Below are positions 2,659 to 60,316 of a stretch of DNA of 64,000 nt, piece after piece. Position numbers and translations under genes: made by a program. Source of the stretch: an uncultured Enterobacteriaceae bacterium (GTDB lineage Bacteria > Pseudomonadota > Gammaproteobacteria > Burkholderiales > SG8-39); the NCBI GenBank assembly GCA_964393745.1, contig CAYMVA010000054.1:16406-80405 (forward strand), written 5' to 3'. Numbering within the stretch: the stretch's first letter is position 1; the number at the start of each line of letters is the position of its first letter. The notes under the pieces were generated by a model, which was given only the letters and a program-made list of their open reading frames with translations, was not told the origin of the DNA and did not search any database.

Positions 2659-3411
2659 TTGGATCTCGCGATCGCAGGCCGGACCGGGCTGGTCACCGGC
2701 GCGAGCGCTGGCATCGGCCGCGCCATCGCGCGCGCGCTCGGCACCGAGGGAGTGCGGCTCGCGATCACCGCCCGCAGGCGCGAGCGGCTGGAAGAGCTCG
2801 CTGCCGAAATCGAGCGCGCCGGCGGCTCGCGCCCGGCGCTCATCGAGTACGATTTCATGCGCGAGGATGCGCCCGCGCGCATCGCTGATGGCGCGCTCGC
2901 CGCGCTCGGCTCGGTCGAGATCCTGGTGAATAACGCCGGCGGCTCGCGCTCCTTCAAGCTCGACGCCTCCGACGAGCAGTGGGACGAGGCGCTGACGCTC
3001 AACTTCACCCGCCAGCGCCAGCTCACCCACAAGCTGCTCGCGCAAATGATGGCACGCAAATGGGGCCGCATTGTCAGCATCACGGGCAAAAGCGAGCCCG
3101 AGGGCATCAACGGCGCCTTCGCAGCCAAGGCGGCGATGCATTCGTGGTCAAAAGGCCTGTCGCGTGAAGTCGGCAAGCACGGCATCACGGTCAACTGCAT
3201 CCCGCCGGGGCGCATCCTCTCGGAGCAGATCCTGCGCAACTACACTCCCGAGTATCGCGCCTGGCAGTCCGAGCACGAGATCCCGGTGGGCGAGTACGGC
3301 CAGCCCGAGGACATCGCGAACCTGGTGTGCTTCCTCGCCTCGCCGCTGGCGCGCTACATCACTGGGGCGGTGATTCCGGTGGATGGCGGGCTGCGCAAAT
3401 ACCAGTTCTGA
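2659..3411 (+). CDS. SDR-family oxidoreductase
   Basis: TGASAGIG, NNAGG and GITVNCIPPG motifs; TTG start; the canonical YxxxK Tyr is absent. Confidence 0.8.
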   Translation: MDLAIAGRTGLVTGASAGIGRAIARALGTEGVRLAITARRRERLEELAAEIERAGGSRPALIEYDFMREDAPARIADGALAALGSVEILVNNAGGSRSFKLDASDEQWDEALTLNFTRQRQLTHKLLAQMMARKWGRIVSITGKSEPEGINGAFAAKAAMHSWSKGLSREVGKHGITVNCIPPGRILSEQILRNYTPEYRAWQSEHEIPVGEYGQPEDIANLVCFLASPLARYITGAVIPVDGGLRKYQF

Positions 3412-3413
3412 CC

Positions 3414-4187
3414 GTGAGCGCGTTTCCGGTGCTGTTCCTATCCCATGGCTCGCCGATGCATGCGCTCGAGCCGGGCGCGGCGGGCGACGCGTGGCGCGAG
3501 CTGGCGCGCAAGCTGCCGCGGCCCAAAGCGATCGTCATGGCCTCGGCTCATTGGGAAACGGAGGTGCCGATGCTCACCGGCGCCGCGCAGCCGGAAACGA
3601 TCCACGATTTCTACGGCTTCCCGCGCCCGCTTTACCAGATCGAGTATCCAGCGCCGGGCGCGCCGGCGCTCGCCGAGAGAGCGCGTGCGCTGCTGGGTGA
3701 AGCCGGGTTCGATGCGCGGATCGACAGCGAGCGCGGACTCGACCATGGCGCCTGGTCGCCGCTGCTGCATATGTACCCGCAAGCCGACATCTCGGTAGTG
3801 CAGGTTTCGCTCCAGACCGAGCTCGGGCCGCGCCACCACTACGAAGTCGGGCGCGCGCTCGCGCCGCTCGCCGGCGAGGGCATCCTGATCTTCGGCTCGG
3901 GCCACATGACCCACAACTTGCGCGACCGCGTGCGCCCCGACGACAACGCCTACGCGCTCGAATTCCAGGCCTGGACTGATGCGCGCATTCGCGAGCGCGA
4001 CCACGAGGCGCTGATTGAATACCGCACGCGCGCGCCGCACGCCGTGCGCGCGCACCCGAGCGATGAACATTTCCTGCCGCTGTTCGTGGCGCTCGGCGCC
4101 GCGGGCCGGGACGCCCGCGCCGAGCGCGTGCACGACGGCATCGAGGGCGTGCTGGCGATGGACGCGTACCGCTTCGACGCCGCCTGA
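3414..4187 (+). CDS. Class III extradiol ring-cleavage dioxygenase (DODA/YgiD-like)
   Basis: FLSHGSPM, SAHW, HDFYGFP, GLDHGAW, GSGHMTHN and HPSDEHFLPL motifs; GTG start inferred. Confidence 0.88.
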   Translation: MSAFPVLFLSHGSPMHALEPGAAGDAWRELARKLPRPKAIVMASAHWETEVPMLTGAAQPETIHDFYGFPRPLYQIEYPAPGAPALAERARALLGEAGFDARIDSERGLDHGAWSPLLHMYPQADISVVQVSLQTELGPRHHYEVGRALAPLAGEGILIFGSGHMTHNLRDRVRPDDNAYALEFQAWTDARIRERDHEALIEYRTRAPHAVRAHPSDEHFLPLFVALGAAGRDARAERVHDGIEGVLAMDAYRFDAA

Positions 4188-4194
4188 GCGCTCG

Positions 4195-4217
4195 AGTGTA
4201 AAGTGTGACTTTACACT
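4195..4217. repeat. Palindromic repeat family A (AGTGTAAAGT-GTG-ACTTTACACT)
   Basis: Perfect 10-bp arms with a 3-nt loop; related copies at 24739, 48319, 54565 and 58310. Confidence 0.9.
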
Positions 4218-12233: not shown

Positions 12234-12300
12234 GGGGACAGACCCCGATTTTCGAGCATATCCCTCAGTAACTTAAGCAGAAAAATCGGGGTCTGTCCCC
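12234..12300. repeat. Inverted REP-like doublet GGGGACAGACCCC...GGGGTCTGTCCCC (family B), 67 bp
   Basis: Same ends and same 67-bp span as 28524..28590; AT-rich spacer. Confidence 0.88.
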
Positions 12301-18101: not shown

Positions 18102-18204
18102 GAAATCGAGGTCAGAGTTCGATTTCGACGAAACAAGGTCGATTTTCGGAAACCGGGGACAGACCCCGAAAATCGAGAACCAAGAAGAACCGGGGTCTGT
18201 CCCC
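18102..18204. repeat. Family B REP-like cluster: GAAATCGAGGTCAGAGTTCGATTTC hairpin plus GGGGACAGACCCC/GGGGTCTGTCCCC doublet
   Basis: Hairpin at 18102..18126; doublet arms at 18155..18167 and 18192..18204. Confidence 0.85.
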
Positions 18205-24286: not shown

Positions 24287-24697
24287 GTGCTGGTCGTCCT
24301 CGACAGCAACGTTCTGCTGAGCGCGCTGCACTCGGGGCTCAGCCCTCCGGCGCAGATCGTGGAGGCATGGCGCAAGGGCCGCTTCCGGCTGGTGACGAGT
24401 CTCGATCAGATCGCGGAGTTCAAGCGGGCGGCGCGCTATCCGAAGCTGCGCCCATTTCTGCCGCGCGGCGCCATCGGCCGCGTGGTCAACGAGTTGCGTT
24501 CGGCGGAGGTACTGCTCGAGCGTTTGCGGCGCGCAGGCGAGTCGCCGGATCCGGGCGACGACTACCTGCTGGCGATGGCGATCGCGGCGGGCGCCGATTT
24601 CCTCGTCACCGGCGACAAGCTTCTGCTTGCCGTGAAGCGGGCCGGGCACGCACGGATCGTCGCGCCGCGCAGCTTCGCTGCCATGCTCGCCCGTTGA
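24287..24697 (+). CDS. PIN-domain putative toxin
   Basis: VVLDSNVLLSA, DPGDDYLL and LVTGDK motifs. Confidence 0.85.
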   Translation: MLVVLDSNVLLSALHSGLSPPAQIVEAWRKGRFRLVTSLDQIAEFKRAARYPKLRPFLPRGAIGRVVNELRSAEVLLERLRRAGESPDPGDDYLLAMAIAAGADFLVTGDKLLLAVKRAGHARIVAPRSFAAMLAR

Positions 24698-24738: not shown

Positions 24739-24761
24739 ACTGTAAAGTCACGCTTTACACT
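24739..24761. repeat. Family A palindrome (ACTGTAAAGT-CAC-GCTTTACACT)
   Basis: Near-perfect copy of the 4195 element in reverse orientation; intergenic. Confidence 0.88.
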
Positions 24762-28523: not shown

Positions 28524-28590
28524 GGGGACAGACCCCGATTATTCTGCCTAAGTAACAGATAGTTAAGCGAGAAAATCGGGGTCTGTCCCC
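28524..28590. repeat. Family B inverted doublet, 67 bp, filling the gap between convergent genes
   Basis: GGGGACAGACCCC at 28524..28536 and GGGGTCTGTCCCC at 28578..28590; abuts both stop codons. Confidence 0.88.
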
Positions 28591-46618: not shown

Positions 46619-46627
46619 GGGTGTCGC

Positions 46628-46875
46628 GACGCGCCGCCCGGTGCCGCCGCCTTCCCCAGTGCCGCGAAGAAAATCGGGGACAGACCTGAATTCTGGGTCT
46701 GTCCCCGATTTTCTTTACCCTCGCCTCATTGCCGCGGTCGTCGGCCGTCTGCGGAACTCGCCCCTCGCTGAAGCGGCTCGGGCTCGGACAATCCTCGCCG
46801 GATCTCCTTCGCCCGCGGCCCAGCTCCGCGCGGCACGATGGGGACCCCTTGCGGCGGCGCCGGGCGGCGCTCGTC
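46628..46875 (+). mobile_element. MITE-like element, left copy, with ~20-bp terminal inverted repeats and an internal family B palindrome
   Basis: Ends GACGCGCCGCCCGGTGCCGCCGC / GCGGCGGCGCCGGGCGGCGC(T)CGTC; internal palindrome at 46667..46715; no ORF of known function. Confidence 0.7.
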
Positions 46876-47055
46876 AGGGCGATTGCTCGCGCGTTGCGGA
46901 GAAAACCGTTTGCGCGCGATGTCCCTTTGCGGCCAAGGAAGGTCATTGGGAGCGAGACATTGTCAAGGGCAATTCAATTGGCCTTGCGTTCAAATGCGCC
47001 CGCTACCAACGTGCGACTCCAGCGAGTAATTTTGGTACCGGTAGAGAGATTGCTT

Positions 47056-47859
47056 TCATCGAAAAGCTGGCACTTGGCTATTCCCGCTGGCAAATACCGC
47101 ACTGCTTTGGCTGGGCTGTGAGATTGGAATTCGCGGCTTATACGCTTCAGCCCAAGCAATAAATTCCTTTACGTAACGCTCTCTCGCCTCGTCCTTGGAA
47201 ATTCGGTCACGGTGAAATGGGTTAGATACCCAAACTGTTTCGGCTGAGTCCAAATCACGCATTGCAGGATTGGCGGTTATGGTGACGGTCAGAAATCGGC
47301 GGGTAAGACTCTGCGCAAACGTTGCCGCTAGTACTGTTGTGGGAATATCGATATCTTCCTTCGTCATCCAACTACGAAGATCCGGGAAAAGACCAGTTCC
47401 CGGCGCGCGCAAGTAACCTACAAGGTGGTTTACCAACAGACAGTTAACCACGACGCCACCGGAATCGTAGGGATTCCTGTAAAGCGTGTCTGTACGCTTG
47501 CATGGATCATCGACGCTCAAAGATCCGACTCTCGCTGGAAGTGTGTCTTTTGAGGCCTCGATACGTATTGTCATTGCAATCCGAGAACCGACACGTTGGA
47601 CAAGGAAAATATCAAGCCTGATTGGTGCCATGTGCTGATCGCCGGGACTGAGCATTCGCATTTCTTGTTCCACGGCGCGAAATACCTGCCACTCGCCGCT
47701 AGGTAGTGGGATTTTCATACGTGCCTGCCCTTGACCCACGAACAGTTCATCTTTAATCACAGTCCCAGGTCGAAGCCCTATGTCGTCCGCGAGTGCCTGC
47801 GAACATATTGCTGCCGCACAAGCGAACGCCACGATCTTTGAAGTTGTTCGAATCGACAT
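47056..47859 (-). CDS. Low-GC orphan secreted hypothetical protein
   Basis: Long open frame in a visibly AT-richer segment; AAGGGGG RBS; signal peptide ending QALA-D; no recognisable family. Confidence 0.7.
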   Translation of the reverse strand: MSIRTTSKIVAFACAAAICSQALADDIGLRPGTVIKDELFVGQGQARMKIPLPSGEWQVFRAVEQEMRMLSPGDQHMAPIRLDIFLVQRVGSRIAMTIRIEASKDTLPARVGSLSVDDPCKRTDTLYRNPYDSGGVVVNCLLVNHLVGYLRAPGTGLFPDLRSWMTKEDIDIPTTVLAATFAQSLTRRFLTVTITANPAMRDLDSAETVWVSNPFHRDRISKDEARERYVKEFIAWAEAYKPRIPISQPSQSSAVFASGNSQVPAFR

Positions 47860-48040
47860 ACACGCATCCCCCTTTGTGACCATTGATTCGGCTAATTGCA
47901 AATCGGCGCGGCCGACGATGAATCTACGAAGCAGCAGCGAGCGTCGGAATCAGCGAGCGCAGAGCCGAGTTAACTCCGGTCGGCACTTAGGCTACACCCG
48001 GAATCGCCGCTATGGGTCGAAAGCGGCCGCCACTGTATCC

Positions 48041-48312
48041 GACGCGCCGCCCGGTGCCGCCGCACGGGGCCCCCATCGTGTCGCGCGGAGCCGAGCCGCG
48101 GGCGGAGGAAACCCGGCGAGGATTGCTCGAGCCCGAGCTGCTTCAGCGAGTGGCGAGTTCCGCAGACGGCCGACGCACGCGGCAATGAGGCGAGGGGAAA
48201 GAAAATCGGGGACAGAGCCCGATTTCGCTTCTGCAAATCGCTGTGGCCGAAATCGGGCTCTGTCCCCGATTTTCTTCGCGGCACTGGGGAAGGCGGCGGC
48301 ACCGGGCGGCGC
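48041..48312 (-). mobile_element. MITE-like element, right copy, inverted relative to the left copy
   Basis: Reverse complement aligns with 46628..46875 at about 90% by hand over the non-loop part; same terminal repeats; internal palindrome at 48199..48276 has a different spacer. Confidence 0.72.
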
Positions 48313-48318
48313 CACACG

Positions 48319-48350
48319 GCAAAAGTGTAAAGCGTGACTTTACACTTTGC
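48319..48350. repeat. Family A palindrome (AAAGTGTAAAGC-GTG-ACTTTACACTTT)
   Basis: Lies 6 bp outside the right MITE-like copy. Confidence 0.88.
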
Positions 48351-48364
48351 CTCGCTGCGCCCCG

Positions 48365-49843
48365 CTAGCCGGCGGCGGGATCGAGCGGGAAGATCGGCCG
48401 CCGCACGCGGCTGAACTTGAGCTGCGAGTAGTCCGAGGTGCACACGCCGGTGCCGGCGCACTCGACCACCGCCTTGGCGAGCGGCCCGAGGCCCGCGCGC
48501 CAGTGCACGCGGCTTTTGAGCATCAGGTAGCGCTTTTTTGCCGGCTCGAGGCCGAGGACGCGGAACGGGGCCATGTCGTAAGGCTCGGTGTGGCGCGAGA
48601 TCACTGCGATCTCGATTTTTCCGGTGTCGAGCACCGCCGAGGGGCCGAGATCACCTTCGGCCCCCTTCGCCATCGGCCCCTCATTGCGATATTTGCCCTC
48701 GACCAGGCGCTTCACCTTGCCGCTCACCGTGCGCGGCTTGCCCTTCAGCCCGAGCGAGGGCATGTCGAGCTTGCCGCCGAGCTCGAGCGTCACGTTGGCC
48801 CCCGCGCCTGCGGCCTGCATCTGCGCCACCGCCTTGGGATCGAAAACCGCGAACGCCGCCGCATCTTCGAGCCCGGCATCGAGCATCGCGCCGAGCACCG
48901 TCATCGTGTCCATGGTGCCGCCCGAGGCGCAGTTGTCGTAATGGTCGAGCAGCACCACCGGCCGCGCCTTGATTCCAGCGGCGCGGGCGAGCGATTTTTC
49001 CAGCAACTCGACCTCGTACACGAACCTGGCGCGATCGCGCCACGCCATGTCGAGCAGCTCGTCGCACTCGCGCCGCGCGCGCGCCGCATCGCCTTCGGTC
49101 ACCACCACGGCTGAAGAGCCCGCATAGGGGATGTCGGCGTGCGGGAAGCCCACGAAGAACGTCGCCGCGAGCGTTCCGGCTTTCTCCATGTCCTTGGCGC
49201 GCTGCTGGATTTCCTTGTTGGGCGAATCCAGGCTCGCCTGGCGCATCACGTGCGGCAGCATCGGGCGGTGGCCGAAAGCCATCGCAGGCTTCGATTTACC
49301 ATCCAGCATCGCGAGCACCGGCCGCCCAGCGCGCAGACCCGTGTCGTACATGTCCACGTGCGGATAGGTCTGGTAGCCCGCGAGCACGGTAGCGTGCTCC
49401 GCCATCGCGGGAAACAGATTGGTGTGCATGTCGAGCGCGACGCCGATCGGCACCTTCGGCGCCACTTTCCGGATGCGGCGCAGGAGTTCCCCCTCGCCGT
49501 CATCGAACCCCTCGGGCACCATCGCGCCGTGCAGGTCGAGCAGGACCGCATCGCAGCCCTTGGCCACGGCCTCCACGATCCGCCCCGCCATCCATTCGTA
49601 AGCGGCGCTCTCTACGCGGCCGCTCGGTGCCGCGTCGCCTGCCACCGGGAACACCGCGCTCGCGCCCGCTTTCTCCGCGAGATCGATGAACGCGCCGATT
49701 GCCGTGCCCGTGCCCTTGAATGCGGCGCGCACCGCCTCGCCTTGGTGTGGCTTCGGCCCGCCGTGCGCAAACCGTACCAGCGGCGTCGGCACCGGCGAGA
49801 AGGTGTTGGTTTCGTGCTTCATCTGCGCGATGACGAGGCGCAT
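48365..49843 (-). CDS. M81 (MlrC-like) metallopeptidase
   Basis: HETNTF, LDLHGAM, DMHTN, TYPHVD and LKSRVHWRA motifs. Confidence 0.88.
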   Translation of the reverse strand: MRLVIAQMKHETNTFSPVPTPLVRFAHGGPKPHQGEAVRAAFKGTGTAIGAFIDLAEKAGASAVFPVAGDAAPSGRVESAAYEWMAGRIVEAVAKGCDAVLLDLHGAMVPEGFDDGEGELLRRIRKVAPKVPIGVALDMHTNLFPAMAEHATVLAGYQTYPHVDMYDTGLRAGRPVLAMLDGKSKPAMAFGHRPMLPHVMRQASLDSPNKEIQQRAKDMEKAGTLAATFFVGFPHADIPYAGSSAVVVTEGDAARARRECDELLDMAWRDRARFVYEVELLEKSLARAAGIKARPVVLLDHYDNCASGGTMDTMTVLGAMLDAGLEDAAAFAVFDPKAVAQMQAAGAGANVTLELGGKLDMPSLGLKGKPRTVSGKVKRLVEGKYRNEGPMAKGAEGDLGPSAVLDTGKIEIAVISRHTEPYDMAPFRVLGLEPAKKRYLMLKSRVHWRAGLGPLAKAVVECAGTGVCTSDYSQLKFSRVRRPIFPLDPAAG

Positions 49844-54033: not shown

Positions 54034-57000
54034 TCAGGGCGGCCACGTGCGCCAGCCCTTGAGCAGCGGGAAATACAGTGCCGGGCGCGCGCCGCCGAGC
54101 GCCGCCGCGTAGCGCTCCAGTTGCGCGCGGTAGCGCTCGTGCTCCTGGTCGAGAAAGCTCTCGACGTCTCCGCCCTTGTGAGCGCCGGTCTTGAAATCTA
54201 CTACCCAGCGCGCGCCGCTTTCGTCGGTCAGCACGCGATCGATGATCTGGCGCCCGGCTGCGGTGCGGATGCGGTATTCGCTCCGCGCCTCGGGATGCTG
54301 GCCGAGGAGCCAGCGGCCGCGCTCGTCGCTGATCGAGTTCTTGAGGGCGTTCGTGACGAGCTCGGCGGCGCGCTCGAGTTCACCTGCCGGGACGCCTCGC
54401 TGGCCCAGCTCGGCGCGGAACCGGGCCCGCAGCCGCTCGACGCGCTCCGCGTTCCAGCCGTCGAGAGCGTCCTCGGCGATCCGCTGCAGCCAGCGGTGTA
54501 CGACAGTACCGGCGTGCCGCGCAGTTTCGCCAGCCCAGGAGAACTCGATCGGGGCTGCAGCGGCCAAAGTGTAAAGTGGGACTTTACACTTTGCCGCCTC
54601 GGGGGCGGTTGGGAGCGTCCATGCGGCCGGGATGCGGTGGAGAACATCGCTTTCACCCCCCACCCTCACCCCTGGCCCCTCTCCCGCAGAGCGGGAGAGG
54701 CGAACCACAGCAGCAAACTGCCAGACCTTGGCGAGCAGCGAGCGCTTGCCGGGGGGCCTCGGTGAGCCGTCGTCGTCGAGCTTCACACAGCCTAGCAGGT
54801 GGATGCGCTGCTTGGCGCGCGTCGAGGCAACGTAGAGCAGACGCCCGGCTTCGGTGTCCTCGGCCTCGCGCTCGAGCGCTTTCAGGTAGTCGTAGGCGCG
54901 ATTCTCCTCGGCGCCGGTCTCGTGGATCGGCGCGAGCAGCAGCTGCCCATCCGCGCGCGCTTTCCACAGGAAGAGCGGCGGCTCGCCGTGCGCCGGCGTG
55001 CGGTCGAGCCCCGGGATGATGACGCTGTCGAACTCGAGCCCCTTCGCCTTGTGGATGGTCATGATTTGCAGGCGCTCGCCGGCCTCGAGATCGGGGAGTG
55101 CATAGAGCTGCTCGAGCGCTTCGGCGAGCACTTCGGGGTCCTCGATGTCGCCCGCTTCCTCGAGACGCTCGAGCTCGTCGAGGTAGATCTCGACATCCTC
55201 GAGTTCGGTGCGGTCGTCCACGCAGGCCGGGCCGCCGAGCGCGAGCCAGCAGCCCTCTACGCGGTCGCGCAGCGTGCCGCGCAGGCGGTGAATCATCGCC
55301 TGGCCGAGCGGCTGCCAAACGCGCATGAGGCGCTTGCGTCCGTCTTCGGATAGCGCGCACACGACGCGGTCGTCGTTCATAAGCTCCCAGATGGCGCGGG
55401 CCCCCGCCTGCGCGGGGGTGACGGATGGGGTCGCAGGGGTGACGAGTGCATGCAGGTCCGCGAGGGTCAGCCCGCACCACGGCGCGCGCAGGATCGCGAG
55501 CCAGGCGATGCGGTCGGCGGGGTGCATGAGCGCGCGCGTAAGCGCGTAGAGGTCCTGCACCGCCTGCTTCTCGCCGAGCCGCTCGATCTCGATGGCGCGG
55601 AAACGCAGGCCCGCCCCCTTGAGGGCCGGCACGATCTCGTCCAAGTGCCTGCGGTTGCGCACCAGGATGGCGCAGGTTCCTTCCGCCTTTGCCGCGAGCG
55701 CCGCAACCTGAGCGGCTTCCGACTCGCGCTCTTCAAACAGATGCCACTCGCACGCCTCGCCTTCGAGCGGCGCATGGTGCGGCGTCGAGCGCGCATACGG
55801 CACCGCGCCCGCGCTTTCGTCCTCCGCTTGCGGGAGCACGCTCGGGAAGGTCGCGTTCACCCACTCGACCACGCGCGCCTGCGAGCGGAAGTTGGTGGAG
55901 AGCGTGAGCGGCTCGAGCGTGACGGAACCCAGCCCTGCGCGCCGCGCGTGCAGGAACAGCGCCACCTCGGCCTCACGGAAGCGGTAGATGGACTGCATCG
56001 GGTCGCCCACCAGGAACAGCGTGCGATCGGAGCCCCGCTTTTCGTCGCCTCGTTCCCAGCCCGCGGTCAGGCGCTCGAGCAACTCCCACTGGCTGATCGA
56101 GGTGTCCTGGAACTCGTCCACCAGGATGTGGTGGATGCGGTGGTCGAGCGCGAGCAGCAGGTCGGTCGGCGAGTCGGGGGAGCCGAGCGCGCGCAGGGCA
56201 CCCTGCGCGATTTCCGTGAAGTCACACTTTGCCCTTTCGGCGAATACCACCTTGAGCTGCGCCGCGGCGAGCGGCAGCAGCGCGATGATCGCCTCCAACG
56301 CCTCCCATTGCGCCGCGCTGTAGCTGGCGGGCGGCATGGCGGGGAGCGCCGCGAGCGCGGCGCGCAGCGGCTCGTTGCCGGCGAGCGCCTGCGCCTGCTT
56401 GTTCTTCTTGCGCCACTCGCCCTTCTTGGTGAGAAGCTCCTGCGCGAGCGCTTCGCTTGCTTCCGGCAGCATTGTGCGCGCGCTGTCCAGCAGCCGCTGC
56501 CGCTCGCGCGCGAGGCCCTGCTCAATCTCGGCGCGCGAAGGCGGGTTGCCGGTCTTGCGCAGCCACTGGTCGCGCCGCGCGAGCATCGCGGCGAGAAGCT
56601 GCGTCGCCAGCGCAGCATTGTTGTCCAGGTGCGCGAGGAAGCGCTCAACCGGCGCGCCCAGGCCGGCGACGGTGCGTGCGGCAGCTTCGCGGTACATCTC
56701 GCCCGCGTCCTCCACAGTCTCGGGCTGGGCGCCGAACTTGGCGAGCACCGGCATCTGGCGCGTGAGCGAAGCGCAGAAAGCGTCGATCGTCATGATGCGC
56801 AGGCGGTGCGCGATGTCGCCAGCGTTGGGCAGCGCCTTGAGCACGCGCGCGCGCATCTCCGCGGCGGCTTTGCGCGTGAAGGTGATGGCGAGCACTTCCT
56901 CGGGCTTCGCGGCGCGCTCGAGCAGCGCGAGGTAGCGCTTGACCAGCAGGTCGGTCTTGCCCGAGCCCGCGGGCGCCTGCACGATGAACGAGCGCGCCGG

Positions 57001-57045
57001 GTCGAGGGCGCGCTCGCGCACCGCCTGGTCGGCTATCATGTCCAT
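54034..57045 (-). CDS. addA: AddA-like UvrD helicase with C-terminal PD-(D/E)XK nuclease
   Basis: QAPAGSGKT, ITFTRKAA.EM, LVDEFQDTS, VGDPMQSIYRFR, IMTIHKAKGLEFD, LYVASTRA and IDRV...VDFKT motifs. Confidence 0.85.
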   Translation of the reverse strand: MDMIADQAVRERALDPARSFIVQAPAGSGKTDLLVKRYLALLERAAKPEEVLAITFTRKAAAEMRARVLKALPNAGDIAHRLRIMTIDAFCASLTRQMPVLAKFGAQPETVEDAGEMYREAAARTVAGLGAPVERFLAHLDNNAALATQLLAAMLARRDQWLRKTGNPPSRAEIEQGLARERQRLLDSARTMLPEASEALAQELLTKKGEWRKKNKQAQALAGNEPLRAALAALPAMPPASYSAAQWEALEAIIALLPLAAAQLKVVFAERAKCDFTEIAQGALRALGSPDSPTDLLLALDHRIHHILVDEFQDTSISQWELLERLTAGWERGDEKRGSDRTLFLVGDPMQSIYRFREAEVALFLHARRAGLGSVTLEPLTLSTNFRSQARVVEWVNATFPSVLPQAEDESAGAVPYARSTPHHAPLEGEACEWHLFEERESEAAQVAALAAKAEGTCAILVRNRRHLDEIVPALKGAGLRFRAIEIERLGEKQAVQDLYALTRALMHPADRIAWLAILRAPWCGLTLADLHALVTPATPSVTPAQAGARAIWELMNDDRVVCALSEDGRKRLMRVWQPLGQAMIHRLRGTLRDRVEGCWLALGGPACVDDRTELEDVEIYLDELERLEEAGDIEDPEVLAEALEQLYALPDLEAGERLQIMTIHKAKGLEFDSVIIPGLDRTPAHGEPPLFLWKARADGQLLLAPIHETGAEENRAYDYLKALEREAEDTEAGRLLYVASTRAKQRIHLLGCVKLDDDGSPRPPGKRSLLAKVWQFAAVVRLSRSAGEGPGVRVGGESDVLHRIPAAWTLPTAPEAAKCKVPLYTLAAAAPIEFSWAGETARHAGTVVHRWLQRIAEDALDGWNAERVERLRARFRAELGQRGVPAGELERAAELVTNALKNSISDERGRWLLGQHPEARSEYRIRTAAGRQIIDRVLTDESGARWVVDFKTGAHKGGDVESFLDQEHERYRAQLERYAAALGGARPALYFPLLKGWRTWPP
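54565..54593. repeat. Family A palindrome in frame within addA (encodes KCKVPLYTL)
   Basis: CAAAGTGTAAAGT-GGG-ACTTTACACTTTG; perfect 13-bp arms; AT-rich island in a GC-rich CDS. Confidence 0.9.
54663..54700. repeat. Family D element (CCCTCACCCC...CCTCTCCCGC-AGA-GCGGGAGAGG) in frame within addA
   Basis: Perfect 10-bp stem at 54678..54700 preceded by a C-rich tract; encodes RLSRSAGEGPGVR(V). Confidence 0.8.
55398..55443. repeat. Family C element (GTCACCCCCGCGCAGGCGGGGGCCC on minus strand) plus a partial copy, in frame within addA
   Basis: Encodes VTPATPSVTPAQAG; same hairpin as 21402..21427. Confidence 0.8.
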
Positions 57046-57059
57046 CGAGGCACACCCCG

Positions 57060-57593
57060 ATGAGAGTCATTCCCAGCGACACCATGCCGGCAATCGACGC
57101 GCGGCTCGCAGGCGGCGGCCGCTGGGCGCTCGCCTCCGAAAAAGCCGAGAAGCTCGCGCTGCTCGCCTTCTACCGCGGAATTTTCTGCCCCATATGCCGC
57201 GGCTGGGTGAGCGAGCTCGACCGCATGGTGCCGGAGTTCGAGCAGCGCGGCGTGTCGGTGATCGCCCTTTCCTGCGACCGCAAGGAATCGGCCGAAAAAG
57301 CAGTCAAGGAATGGGGCCTCGCCAACCTGCGCGTCGGCTATCGGCTCGACCCCGAGGACGCGAGGAAAGCGGGCCTGTACATCTCCGAAGGCCGCGGCGT
57401 GAATCCGTCGAGCAACGAAAAAGAGCCGATGCTGTTCACCGAGCCGGCGGTGCTCGCGGTGCTGCCCGAAGGCGAGTTGTACGCGGGGTGGATCCAGTCG
57501 ACGCCCTATGCGCGCCCGCGCCTCGCCGACATTCTCGCCGCAGTGGACAGTTTCGTGTCGAAGGATTTGCCGGCGCCGCGCGGCTCGGCGTAG
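57060..57593 (+). CDS. AhpC/TSA-like redoxin (CxxC) inserted antisense between addB and addA
   Basis: FYRG.FCPICR, ALSCD, GLYIS.G and F.EPA motifs. Confidence 0.8.
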   Translation: MRVIPSDTMPAIDARLAGGGRWALASEKAEKLALLAFYRGIFCPICRGWVSELDRMVPEFEQRGVSVIALSCDRKESAEKAVKEWGLANLRVGYRLDPEDARKAGLYISEGRGVNPSSNEKEPMLFTEPAVLAVLPEGELYAGWIQSTPYARPRLADILAAVDSFVSKDLPAPRGSA

Positions 57594-57622: not shown

Positions 57623-60316
57623 TCATGGCTGGTCCTCGGTCTCGGCGTCCGTCTGCAGCGCGCCGATGCGCTCGTGCACCCGGCACAGCGGCTGCAGGTC
57701 GCACTGGCGGCAAGTCTTCAGGCCCTCCTTCGGGTCCACCTGCGCCGCGCCCGAGGCAAAACCTTGCGCGAGCGTATCGAGCTCTTTCTTCCAGCCGGCG
57801 ATCAAGTCGCCCCAGTTGTCGTAGCGCGTGAGCCCCGGCACTGCATCCGGCTCGCGCGAGTAGCCCATGAAGCGCATCTCGCCGCGCCGCACCTTGGCGT
57901 AGGCAACCGCCGCGACTTCCTCGGGCGCGTTCACCGCGTAGAGCGGCAGTTGCGGCTCCGTGGGCCGCTCGCCCATCCAGGCTCGCGGCGAGAGCTGCCT
58001 GCCGGTCTTGTAGTCGATGAGCAGGTGCGCAGCCGCATCCTTGCCATCGGAGAGGCGGTCCATGCGATCGATGCGGCCCGAGAACTCGAGCCCGCCGGCA
58101 GTGAGCGTGCGCTTGTCCTCGCGCGCCACCACTTCGAAGTCTTCGCGTCCCTTCTCCAACTCGAGCCAGTCGCGCGCCAAGTGCTCCAGTCGCGCGCGTT
58201 CCAGCTCGGCAAAGCGCCCTTCGAGCACGCCCGGCCGCCGCTCGCGCAGGCGCGCCACGGCAGCGGCGGCCGCGCGGCCTATCGCTGCCGCCAAGTCCGC
58301 AGGGGTCAGACTGTAAAGCGTCGCTTTACACTTGAGCTCGCCCCACACGCCTGCCATCAGGGCATGCAGCAGCGTGCCGCGCTCGAGGTCGTCGAGCCCC
58401 GCAGCGGGCGCCCCAAGCGCTTCCGCCCCGAGGCGGTGGCGCGCGAACGCCCGAAACGGGCACGCGGACTGGTCGGCGAGTACGCGCGTGCCGCCGCGCA
58501 CGCGCTTGTCGGCGAAGCGCGGCGCAATCCCATCGGCGGCCGATTCGAGGCACCGCGCTGCGAACAGCGCATCGCGGTAGCGCGCAAATTGCGGCAGCTC
58601 GGGCTTGCGCTCCGCAATTGTGGCGATGAGCGGGCTGGGCAGCAGGTTGCGGTCCTCCTCGCGCAGCGCATGCGACACGATCACCTCGTCGGCCGCGGCC
58701 AGCCAGCCCTCGGTGATTCGCCGGTCGAGCGCGATCGAGCCCTCGGCCGAGGCCTGCGGGATGTCCGCCTTCTTTTGCAGCGCCACGGCGATGAATGGAT
58801 TGGGCCGCGCGTGCAGCGGCCAGGCTTCGTCGGTCAATCCGCTCACCCACAGGCCGTCAAACTCCAAACCCGCGGATTCGAGGATACCGAGCACCTGCAC
58901 CGGCGCTTCCGGCGACTCGGGTTGGAACAGCATCTCCGCGCACAGGCGCTCGAGATGCGCGAGCGCATCGGCACGGTCCATCGCCGGCACGACGCGCTCG
59001 AGCTTCGCCAGCTCGCCCAGCATTTCATGGAGCTTGGCGCGCGCCTGGTACTCGTCCGAATCGAGTGCGCGCTCGCCAGGAAAGCCCGCCGCCTCGAGCA
59101 GCGCCGTAAAATGCGCCGCGCACTGGTGCGGCGAGCGCACGCGCGCGCGGTTGGCCTCGGCGCAGTTGTAAAGCGCCTCCAGCCTTTCGCGCAACAGCGC
59201 GCAAGGCTCGGCCGCAGCGACCAGCCTCGCAAGCGTCACACGCGCGGGCAGCGTCCTGCGCAGCTCCGCATCCAGGCGCGCGCGCGGCGCGAGCTCGCTC
59301 TCGGCGCCGCCGAGGAAGGGCGAGCGCAGCACCCGGCTGGCGAGCGCGAACTCGACCTCGCCCGCAGCGAGTTCCAGGATCGCGAGCGCCGCGTGCACGA
59401 CAGGCGCGTCCGAGAGCGGCGCGCCAAGCGAAACGTTGAAGGGCATCGGCTCCCTGCTCGCGCCGGGCAGGTTGCAGCCGGGCTGCATGAAGCGCGAGAA
59501 CACGCGCACCACTTCCCGGCGGCGCTTCGCCAGATCGGGAATGACGACTCCAAAGCGGAGGTCTGAACTCCCAACCTTACCCTGCTCGAGTCGCGCGCGC
59601 GCCCACGTTGCCGCTGCCTCCAATTCCTCGCGCGCTGAGGCGAACGCGGCGCGCATCGGGATCGCATTACGCTTGCGTGGACCGCACTCGCGCAGCTCGA
59701 TTCCCTGCGCGGCGCAGGCCTGCAGGAAGTCGCTCGCCTGCGGCGGCAGGATGTCGAAGCCGTAGGCGACGAGCAGCTGCGGCTTGCGCAGCGCGCGCTC
59801 GGGGAGCAGGCCCGCCACCACATCGGGCAGGCGCGCGCTATCGGTGTCAGCGCCGCAGCGCGCAGCGTAATCCTTTGCCCACGCGGCGAACGCGGCGCTG
59901 TCTTCGCTGCCCGGGAATTTCTCCAGCGCTCCGTCGATTCTCCAGGCGTGCGCGAGGCGCCATGCGTCCATCGCCTGCGCTGCGGCCTGCGCCGGAGAAA
60001 GCAGCGCGTCGCTCCACGCGCTCGCCGCGATCGCCGCCTCCCATAACTGCCGCTCCTGTACCGGCGTGAGGAGATGCGGCGCGGGTGTAGTCTCCGAGAA
60101 CAGCGCGTCTTCCCACAGGCGCTCCACGAATGCGGCGAGGGGCAGGATGTCGGCGTCCTCCCAGACCGCGAGGCCTCTTCCGATCTGGCTGGCATAGAAC
60201 TCGCGTCCCAGCTCCTGCGCCAGGCGCTGGTTGGGCGTGACCACGGTGGCGCGCGCGGCGTGCCCTCCGGCGAGCCGCGCGAAAAGTTCCTGCTTGGTGA
60301 GCGCAGCGGCCTGCAT
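57623..60316 (-). CDS. addB: AddB-like PD-(D/E)XK nuclease subunit with Fe-S staple cysteines
   Basis: VVTPNQRLA, QSACPFRAFA, GRIDRMD, IDYKTG, PQLPLYA and CRQCDLQPLCR motifs. Confidence 0.82.
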   Translation of the reverse strand: MQAAALTKQELFARLAGGHAARATVVTPNQRLAQELGREFYASQIGRGLAVWEDADILPLAAFVERLWEDALFSETTPAPHLLTPVQERQLWEAAIAASAWSDALLSPAQAAAQAMDAWRLAHAWRIDGALEKFPGSEDSAAFAAWAKDYAARCGADTDSARLPDVVAGLLPERALRKPQLLVAYGFDILPPQASDFLQACAAQGIELRECGPRKRNAIPMRAAFASAREELEAAATWARARLEQGKVGSSDLRFGVVIPDLAKRRREVVRVFSRFMQPGCNLPGASREPMPFNVSLGAPLSDAPVVHAALAILELAAGEVEFALASRVLRSPFLGGAESELAPRARLDAELRRTLPARVTLARLVAAAEPCALLRERLEALYNCAEANRARVRSPHQCAAHFTALLEAAGFPGERALDSDEYQARAKLHEMLGELAKLERVVPAMDRADALAHLERLCAEMLFQPESPEAPVQVLGILESAGLEFDGLWVSGLTDEAWPLHARPNPFIAVALQKKADIPQASAEGSIALDRRITEGWLAAADEVIVSHALREEDRNLLPSPLIATIAERKPELPQFARYRDALFAARCLESAADGIAPRFADKRVRGGTRVLADQSACPFRAFARHRLGAEALGAPAAGLDDLERGTLLHALMAGVWGELKCKATLYSLTPADLAAAIGRAAAAAVARLRERRPGVLEGRFAELERARLEHLARDWLELEKGREDFEVVAREDKRTLTAGGLEFSGRIDRMDRLSDGKDAAAHLLIDYKTGRQLSPRAWMGERPTEPQLPLYAVNAPEEVAAVAYAKVRRGEMRFMGYSREPDAVPGLTRYDNWGDLIAGWKKELDTLAQGFASGAAQVDPKEGLKTCRQCDLQPLCRVHERIGALQTDAETEDQP
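58302..58333. repeat. Family B half-site (GGGGTCAGAC) fused to a family A palindrome, in frame within addB (encodes KCKATLYSLTP)
   Basis: GGGGTCAG-ACTGTAAAGC-GTC-GCTTTACACTT. Confidence 0.85.

Follow-up and report, generated by a model that had tools for sequence, protein, structure and literature searches.

The stretch of DNA analysed here, referred to as the window (64,000 nucleotides of contig CAYMVA010000054.1), carries on its minus strand an AddB-like PD-(D/E)XK nuclease gene (57623-60316, 897 aa) with a short palindrome in its reading frame. The open reading frame (ORF) scored 874.5 bits against TIGR03623, 'probable DNA repair protein' (cut-off 299.6), and carried PF12705 (PD-(D/E)XK nuclease) in the precomputed annotations. 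Its score against the alpha-proteobacterial addB_alphas equivalog was only 71.3 bits (cut-off 486.5), so the gene is labelled AddB-like and not a curated AddB equivalog. The plus strand at 58302-58333 reads caGGGGTCAGAC-TGTAAAGCGTCGCTTTACA-ctt, where TGTAAAGCGTCGCTTTACA (58312-58330; TGTAAAG-CGTCG-CTTTACA) is the core palindrome of a repeat designated family A. It has perfect arms (7+5+7) that match the family pattern, TGTAAAG/CTTTACA with a 5-nt spacer, at 14/14 positions, and it was unchanged across five orthologous lineages, save for one synonymous loop change. The in-frame minus-strand translation across the palindrome is ELKCKATLYSLTPADL, in the wider context ...WGELKCKATLYSLTPADL..., and nine codons on that strand (58307-58333), AAG TGT AAA GCG ACG CTT TAC AGT CTG or KCKATLYSL, occupy the alignment columns of RTKSRLDSL in palindrome-free orthologues. 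With perfect 7-nt arms, an in-frame position and copies far above the shuffle expectation, the palindrome that the original prediction recognized at this site is genuine. An extra TGTAAAG at 59167 in the same gene proved to be native GCG CTT TAC AAC, a chance half-site.

The original prediction further suggested that the element may have overwritten codons rather than added them, and an alignment of 30 AddB orthologues bore this out. The five closest (74-100% identity) all had CKATLYSL, and the next 16 (58-65% identity), which are palindrome-free, had the identical number of residues there, reading WGTLRTKSRLDSLPPDEL (RTKSRLDSL). A further nine were 4 residues shorter, directly downstream of the segment. 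At codon level the comparison with the nearest palindrome-free orthologues was gapless (in locus L011 the codons are CGC ACG AAA TCG CGC CTC GAC GCG ATG, with no indel), and the plain insertion that had been named as the refutation was not seen.

The same was true of at least four other coding copies. The AddA-like UvrD-helicase/nuclease gene downstream (54034-57045, minus strand, 1003 aa) contains a second in-frame family A copy, AAKCKVPLYTLAA (54570-54588), with element-like sequence on both flanks. Its peptide, AAKCKVPLYTLAAAAP, lies in a variable linker that in 24 outgroups reads ..V(R/K)W(Q/D)APPEGRDxExx, with an invariant IEFSW behind it, and showed no length change beyond ±1 residue. 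Three more cases came from a related metagenome-assembled genome (MAG). The PolA copy, LLTVKRDFTLAT, aligned without gaps to LTDLIRDVPLPQ (DNA polymerase I chain 6vde) and LAKVRTDLPLEV (Taq polymerase), the glucose-6-phosphate isomerase (PGI) copy was gapless against chain 2wu8, and the PxpC copy, GAECKVTLYT, was gapless against GAGCEARLDD of YbgK (5dud). Thus, at least five coding copies change codons with no length change, or with a change of at most one residue. An intergenic copy behaved similarly; by our own count, the interval from a shared TAG stop to a shared GCGCCGCCCGG is filled by a 52-nt family A hairpin in the window and by 54 nt in L008, which consist of unrelated small hairpins.

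The addB copy was common to lineages down to 74% protein identity (five lineages) and the addA copy to lineages down to 77%. Maintenance was assessed at amino acid-invariant columns where the window codon ends in A or T. In AddB (five lineages) the same AT-ending codon was kept at 4/4 such columns in the motif versus 1/82 outside it (P = 2e-8), and in AddA (three lineages) at 4/4 versus 3/83 (P = 2e-6). Plain synonymous-codon invariance was marginal (P about 0.06), and the AT-ending-codon test is the decisive one. The GC content at third codon positions (GC3) was 0.85-0.87 for the gene versus 2-3/7 for the motif. The invariant AT-ending codons and the low GC3 indicate that maintenance of the palindrome acts on the DNA or RNA and not on the protein, and that over deep divergence the copies have stayed perfect at AT-rich synonymous positions. 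A separate AddA orthologue (P0134, L083:1332-4325), far from the palindrome clade on a neighbour-joining tree, reads ECKTSLYA at the AddA site. Its codons, TGC AAG ACC TCG CTA TAC, give the family A peptide signature without the DNA palindrome, and the segment is perhaps what remains of a decayed copy or the result of a second, independent hit there.

A dispersed family of palindromes

The window contains five perfect TGTAAAG-N5-CTTTACA copies (4197, 24741, 48326, 54570 and 58312), about 1 per 13 kb, versus 0.00-0.19 in shuffled sequences. Three are intergenic: one at 4197-4215, 10 nt past the TGA stop of ORF 3327-4187 (+), one at 24741-24759, 44 nt past the stop of ORF 24287-24697 (+), and one at 48326-48344, whose full hairpin (~48317-48366) lies right after the stop codon of an MlrC-like gene. 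A near-copy at 47478, with 2 mismatches, falls within a foreign ORF of low GC and probably arose by chance. No Rfam family reached its gathering score in the window.

In species-representative genomes, AGTGTAAAG-N5-CTTTACACT matched at least 69 loci. Among the matches listed, about 47 (loci within L013-L081) came from one 70%-GC MAG, GCA_964627075.1, which also encodes an AddB orthologue of 74% identity, and at least 60 further family A copies were found in the related 70%-GC MAG. The title of GCA_964627075.1, 'uncultured Enterobacteriaceae bacterium', appears to be a mislabel, since the MAG has ~70% GC and the window repair genes, to which the copies in this MAG are 74-77% identical, have homologues with Burkholderiales or Betaproteobacteria labels. 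The window and its relatives together had 70 perfect-arm copies, one copy with 1 mismatch and one with 2, a ratio biased by the choice of about 50 of the 70 as perfect, with about 20 unbiased. The spacer was always 5 nt, and 140 of the 147 half-sites were in palindromes.

The intergenic copies have a consensus of ~63 nt, aGGCGG-N~10-GGCC-rAAG-core-CTTyGGCC-N~10-CCGCCt, and fold as long hairpins with the invariant tip (A)AGTGTAAAG-N5-CTTTACACT(T). They usually begin at the stop codon of a gene, often filling the gap between two convergent stops, and stop codons concentrate at arm positions -25 to -22. According to a GC3-based gene call, 21 copies were convergent, 12 tandem (mostly ~20 nt past a stop), 4 divergent and 18 within ORFs. 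About 30% of the copies are inside genes, in frame, including the genome-maintenance genes AddA, AddB, PolA and HrpA. Only two open frames were used, CK[VA][TP]LY[TS] and [ST]VK[SR]xFTL, which avoid the TAA in TGTAAAG. The third frame occurred only at extreme C-termini, where this TAA is the stop (L020:2430, L025:4046, L039:6936, L052:3344 and L079:2618). Relative to the arm consensus (aGGCGG...GGCC.AAG), the two arms of the addB copy reach the 98.8th and the 71st percentile on a weakly informative matrix, and next to its core the usual AG is missing on one side (gaCTGTAAAG).

Outside these genomes, a Polyangia MAG (JAXLYE010000006.1, L040) had three family A-type palindromes (2404, 3549 and 5825) within 8 kb of a Myxococcota genome. 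One lies 29 nt upstream of an oxidoreductase gene, one in the 2Fe-2S domain of that gene (CGACKVKLYSG) and one, with one mismatch, at a convergent 3' end, so the same core exists as a repeat outside the Burkholderiales-like clade. Several other candidates were set aside. Matches to the 18-specified-base pattern in AT-rich genomes were mostly single and consistent with chance. Two matches in a Lentisphaerae MAG (L077:3769 and 4809) fall in paralogous pilin-like genes and are chance overlaps with the prepilin-type leader; their codons, AGT GTA AAG ... GGC TTT ACA CTT (SVK..GFTLIELL), resemble the frame-2 peptide. TyrR boxes have the form TGTAAA-N6-TTTACA, and identity with them was rejected on the spacing, N7 here, and on the hundreds of copies.

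Among the closest parallels are REPs (repetitive extragenic palindromes). Most of them occupy convergent or unidirectional spacers at a distance of ~20 nt from the 3' end of an ORF, and a REP terminus can provide the stop codon. A minority is within ORFs, notably PolA, UvrD-like and RecBCD/AddAB-type genes, and the published account presents these as 20-30-residue inserts (Di Nocera et al. 2013, PMC3733652). Family A likewise consists of high-copy short palindromes near ORF 3' ends, with an intragenic minority that includes repair genes. However, the GTAG/CGTC tags that define the REP super-families (PMC3733652) are lacking. GTAG was found in 12 of 122 family A arms (9.8%) versus 9.4% of background 45-mers, and CGTC had no positional peak in the arms. 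The conserved part of family A is an AT-rich hairpin tip instead of a tagged GC-rich stem, its core coincides with a HigA-type putative operator, as described below, and its coding copies add no length.

It is nevertheless conceivable that the coding copies are classical in-frame insertions of a REP or a miniature inverted-repeat transposable element, mobilized by a REP-associated tyrosine transposase (RAYT) or another transposase, the added length being hidden by a compensating deletion or by alignment ambiguity. The REP-like copy number and placement are in keeping with this explanation, as is the description of intragenic REPs in repair genes as insertions (PMC3733652). In addition, the segments hit are variable loops, and those of HrpA and PurM are 4 and 1-2 residues longer, respectively, than in distant homologues. 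The gapless alignments at the palindromes of AddB, PolA, PGI and PxpC, and the AddA linker, speak against it, as does the missing tag. No target duplications were noticed at family A copies. The ORFs of the low-GC insert at 46.6-48.3 kb, the ORFs between the L040 copies and the neighbours of multi-copy loci were ordinary enzymes or had no Pfam match, and neither a transposase nor a RAYT was seen among them, although no systematic search was made. Insertion is therefore considered improbable.

Palindromic repeats that are tolerated in frame have a precedent in the Rickettsia palindromic elements (RPE), which Ogata et al. reportedly described in 2000 as selfish DNA lying in frame within protein-coding genes, and which PMC3733652 also cites. 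RPEs lengthen their host proteins by about 30-50 residues. Family A resembles them in that its copies are accommodated in surface or variable segments of conserved proteins, but its core added no residues relative to element-free orthologues in AddB, PolA, PGI and PxpC, and at most one in AddA.

The core palindrome and higA promoters

A palindrome identical to the core (9+5+9) was found 5-40 nt upstream of higB-higA operons in five unrelated groups, represented by five Rheinheimera records, Arsukibacterium, a Chromatiaceae MAG, a Comamonadaceae MAG and a Bacteroidetes MAG (L019, L022, L034, L045, L048, L060, L065, L074 and L080). The HigB proteins of these operons scored 53-59 bits against PF05015, and the HigA proteins 72-96 bits against TIGR02607. 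The repeat-rich MAG itself has an orphan higA without higB (L020:5075-5368, 97 aa; 77 bits against TIGR02607, cut-off 47.7), and a family A copy precedes the start of this gene by 9 nt. Orthologues of this orphan HigA (89-91% identity) were present on six further metagenome contigs, with at least three distinct sequences, and carried gagTTGCAAaCTGTAAAGcatgaCTTTACACTttgcccATG or a near variant (L085-L090); a metagenome scan with a single HigA protein found one relative. By our own reading, the palindrome at the orphan higA (L020:5377, L085:2474, L086:3974 and L088:264) overlaps a plausible TTGCAA-17 nt-TACACT promoter, with the ATG 8-9 nt further on, which suggests that the transcript would be leaderless and autorepressed. 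Every family A copy carries TACACT/AGTGTA, which, given a -35, could serve as a -10 element.

Since an identical palindrome sits at higBA and orphan higA promoters, the core is regarded as a putative HigA-type operator to which a helix-turn-helix dimer of the HigA family most likely binds. For the dispersed copies, the orphan HigA is an obvious candidate as reader. A HigBA system at 53% identity has a different palindrome, TGTAAC-N14-GTTACA. The characterised GraA operator, TAACGTTA (PMC6393540), was considered as a match and rejected, as its palindrome differs from the family A core. Unlike a typical operator, which occurs once per operon, family A is dispersed over gene ends and the interior of ORFs, with about 5 copies per 64 kb; the core sequence overlaps higBA and higA promoters, and the addB copy does not lie at a promoter.

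One broader proposal, which we put forward tentatively and regard as doubtful, is that an orphan HigA and its operator have been co-opted as a genome-wide cis-element system. The palindrome would spread by length-preserving templated replacement of ~25-60 bp rather than by transposition, and would be read by the protein and held invariant. Carried within a REP-like hairpin, it would reach the 3' ends of genes and enter ORFs in frame, those of repair genes included.

The operator matches also bear on the idea that the motif is a DNA uptake signal that accumulates in tolerated coding positions and in inverted pairs at terminators, with a preference for genome-maintenance genes. DNA uptake sequences (DUS) of Neisseria and uptake signal sequences (USS) of Pasteurellaceae in coding regions have reportedly been described by Davidsen et al. 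in 2004 and by Findlay and Redfield in 2009. Family A shares with them ORF copies without indels, confined to tolerated frames, a bias towards genome maintenance (AddA, AddB, PolA and HrpA) and inverted pairs at gene ends. In contrast to uptake sequences, however, its unit is an obligate palindrome whose spacer is fixed at 5 nt, half-sites on their own are practically missing, and its density is ten-fold lower than one copy per kb. Moreover, the same core recurs in the Polyangia MAG and as the higBA promoter palindrome in several phyla. An uptake signal is thus very improbable.

How the coding copies arose

The interpretation to which we incline, with some confidence, is that the addB palindrome is one old copy of the REP-like family A, with a HigA-type operator as its tip, that entered the gene by same-length replacement. 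The element replaced nine native addB codons, possibly ~15 counting one arm, in a variable segment before the divergence of the five sampled lineages. The copy would have been written in one event, with another copy as the template for a short-patch conversion or a template switch. Candidate routes are ectopic conversion of a short patch, a template switch during replication and the annealing of single-stranded DNA. The copy would have been kept because the orphan HigA-like protein, a DNA or mRNA hairpin, or both, act there, possibly as a roadblock, a terminator or a stabiliser.

Templated replacement is the favoured reading of the writing step because imperfect copies are nearly absent, the coding flanks are arm-like and the commonest loop is over-represented. 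A matrix built from the arms of intergenic copies was used to score the 22-nt flanks of 14 independent coding events. By our tally, 16 of the 28 arms exceeded the 95th percentile of background, while the flanks of palindrome-free outgroups had background scores (1st-89th percentile). The arm-like flanks suggest that the replaced tract exceeds the core, extending to about 60 nt in AddA and to the core plus one arm in AddB. In AddB the upstream flank (58334-58357, minus strand; codons AGVWGELK) has the arm at the 98.8th percentile, and the homologous outgroup flank is not arm-like in score, so that this flank may belong to the replaced tract. The loops vary freely among family A copies, and yet the commonest loop, CGTGA/TCACG, was present in 6 of the 14 coding events, versus ~2/1024 expected per 5-mer or its reverse complement. 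The outgroup flanks lack similarity to the element arms, which disfavours strong flanking homology as the guide. Homology-guided conversion, the route named in the original prediction, stays conjectural. A native peptide that was already near one of the two encoded peptides (AddB, PolA and PxpC) may have been a predisposing factor.

This resemblance also speaks for an origin in situ, in which point substitutions at the site, each favoured for HigA-like binding or hairpin stability, would have built the palindrome without a template. The native and encoded peptides are indeed alike in PolA (V(K/R)xD(V/L)xL), PxpC (GAGCEARL versus GAECKVTL) and AddB (K..L.SL), the length is unchanged and the motif is maintained at the DNA level. 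Several observations nevertheless make this origin rather unlikely, 1) our codon comparison indicates that ~10-16 substitutions are required within 27 nt, 2) imperfect copies are nearly absent, with 70 perfect copies versus 2 with 1-2 mismatches, 3) the coding flanks and loops follow the family consensus although loops vary freely, and 4) it is hard to see selection building such sites in ~14 unrelated enzymes.

Quasipalindrome or template-switch mutagenesis, reportedly described by Ripley in 1982 and studied by the Lovett laboratory, also produces clustered substitutions in one event, keeps the length and perfects inverted repeats, and is thus a candidate route for the writing. Quasipalindrome mutagenesis templates on the neighbouring arm. 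By itself, this leaves it unexplained that every copy carries the same family-specific consensus of arm, loop and flank.

A number of points weigh against templated replacement by an operator-tipped element. The arm matrix is weakly informative, the addB flanks are half element-like at the two percentiles given above, and the loop preference could reflect binding-site selection instead of copying. The ratio of perfect to imperfect copies is subject to the bias already stated, and the assignment of copies as coding or non-coding is a GC3 heuristic. The PurM and HrpA copies are in loops longer than those of distant homologues, an excess that is far below one element length. There is no higA within the window, the orphan higA being from a relative at 74% AddB identity, and HigA binding, transcript ends and the hairpin are all predicted. 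Finally, the donor copy, enzyme and intermediate of a templated replacement are all hypothetical.

Catalogues of REP-type repeats inside replication and repair genes go back to 2013, and they list these repeats as insertions without offering an explanation (PMC3733652). New relative to REPs, intragenic ones included, are the same-length replacement, the persistence of perfect copies at synonymous positions and the antitoxin-operator core, the conserved tip being equal to a putative toxin-antitoxin operator that is also present at an orphan higA in the same clade. If the co-option proposal is true, it would be an undescribed 'writing' mode for bacterial repeats and could explain the REPs long noted inside repair genes. 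With a concrete candidate reader protein and before/after orthologue pairs at hand, two questions are testable now: by what route short palindromic repeats arise and persist, and whether they have a dedicated protein as reader. In annotation, such segments ought to be taken neither for native protein sequence nor for evidence of insertion.

Family B and neighbouring features

The ten bases that precede the addB palindrome, GGGGTCAGAC (58302-58311, plus strand), were taken in the original prediction as half of a second repeat, family B, fused to family A, a junction thought to link the two families mechanistically such that they would share a mechanism and move or convert together. The basis for this is that GGGGTCAGAC abuts the palindrome and matches the start of a family B arm, GGGGACAGAC, at 9/10 bases, and that both families occur together in a few intergenic regions (window 48.2-48.35 kb, L033 and L046). 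True family B elements, however, are intergenic inverted pairs of ~20-nt arms, CGGGGACAGACCCCGATTTTC ... GAAAATCGGGGTCTGTCCCCG, 10-47 nt apart. The site at 58302 is within an ORF, and by our reading the match ends after ten bases, the next ten being the family A palindrome rather than CCCGATTTTC (1/10 match to the family B arm). No inverted partner, GTCTG[AT]CCCC, was found near 58302.

The GGGGTCAGAC sequence was also lineage-specific. In the codon alignment of five genes, the bases beside the palindrome were GGGGCCAGAC (L007 and L008), GGAGGCAGAC (L003) and GCGGGCAGAC (L009), so that GGGGTCAGAC is missing from orthologues that retain the palindrome. It consists of native Ser-Leu-Thr-Pro codons and arises via a GCC (Ala) to ACC (Thr) change beside the Ser-Leu codons, the 'AGAC' being the Ser-Leu pair that is kept even in distant orthologues. 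The family B 10-mer, at one mismatch or fewer, had 10 matches in the window, of which 8 were the four true family B pairs; the two strays (19673 and 58302) compare with 3.0 expected by chance.

The adjacency test that the original prediction had called for was run on 62 family A copies in 393 kb. Within -40 to +50 nt of the core, there were three B-like 10-mers: a complete, separate family B element 45 nt away (L046), a G-rich string within the outer arm of a family A element (L057) and the addB site itself. No other junction of family A with a family B half was found, a B half abutting the core in none of the other copies. Furthermore, the L008 spacer orthologous to window 48.2-48.35 kb has retained family B and lacks family A, which indicates that the two families are gained or lost independently. 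The position of GGGGTCAGAC beside the palindrome is a coincidence, the families behave independently, and a fusion that links them is hardly credible.

The family B elements of the window lie at 12234-12300 (arms GGGGACAGACCCCGATTTTC / GAAAATCGGGGTCTGTCCCC), 18155-18204, 28524-28590 and 46676-46706, the last with a short spacer and within the left arm of a long inverted repeat. A variant (GGGGACAGAGCCCG...CGGGCTCTGTCCCC, ~48202-48274) is ~45 nt from the family A copy at 48326 and is conserved in L008. The last two of these fall in a ~1.7-kb low-GC segment (46620-48321; GC 0.61 versus 0.68) bounded by inverted repeats of ~250 nt (46622-46870 / 48044-48321, 88-94% complementary), with one family B element in each. 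A 281-aa ORF inside it (47056-47901, minus strand) had no Pfam match. In L003 the MlrC-like and DinB-like genes that flank the segment overlap directly, so the segment seems to stem from a recent insertion or an inverted duplication.

An AhpC/TSA-family (peroxiredoxin-type) gene on the opposite strand (57060-57593, +) separates the AddB-like gene from the AddA-like one. It occupies the same place in L007, L008, L009 and L084, and in L011 the two repair genes overlap directly. Elsewhere in the window, the direct-repeat families D1-D5 (~8.5-9.5, 11.2-12.3, 16.9-18.0, 31.1-32.2, 37.5-38.5 and ~43 kb) mark a set of diverged paralogues, five or six genes of ~330-360 codons each. In L001/L003 the corresponding neighbour is annotated PF03401 (TctC/Bug-type periplasmic binding protein), which is typical of Burkholderiales.

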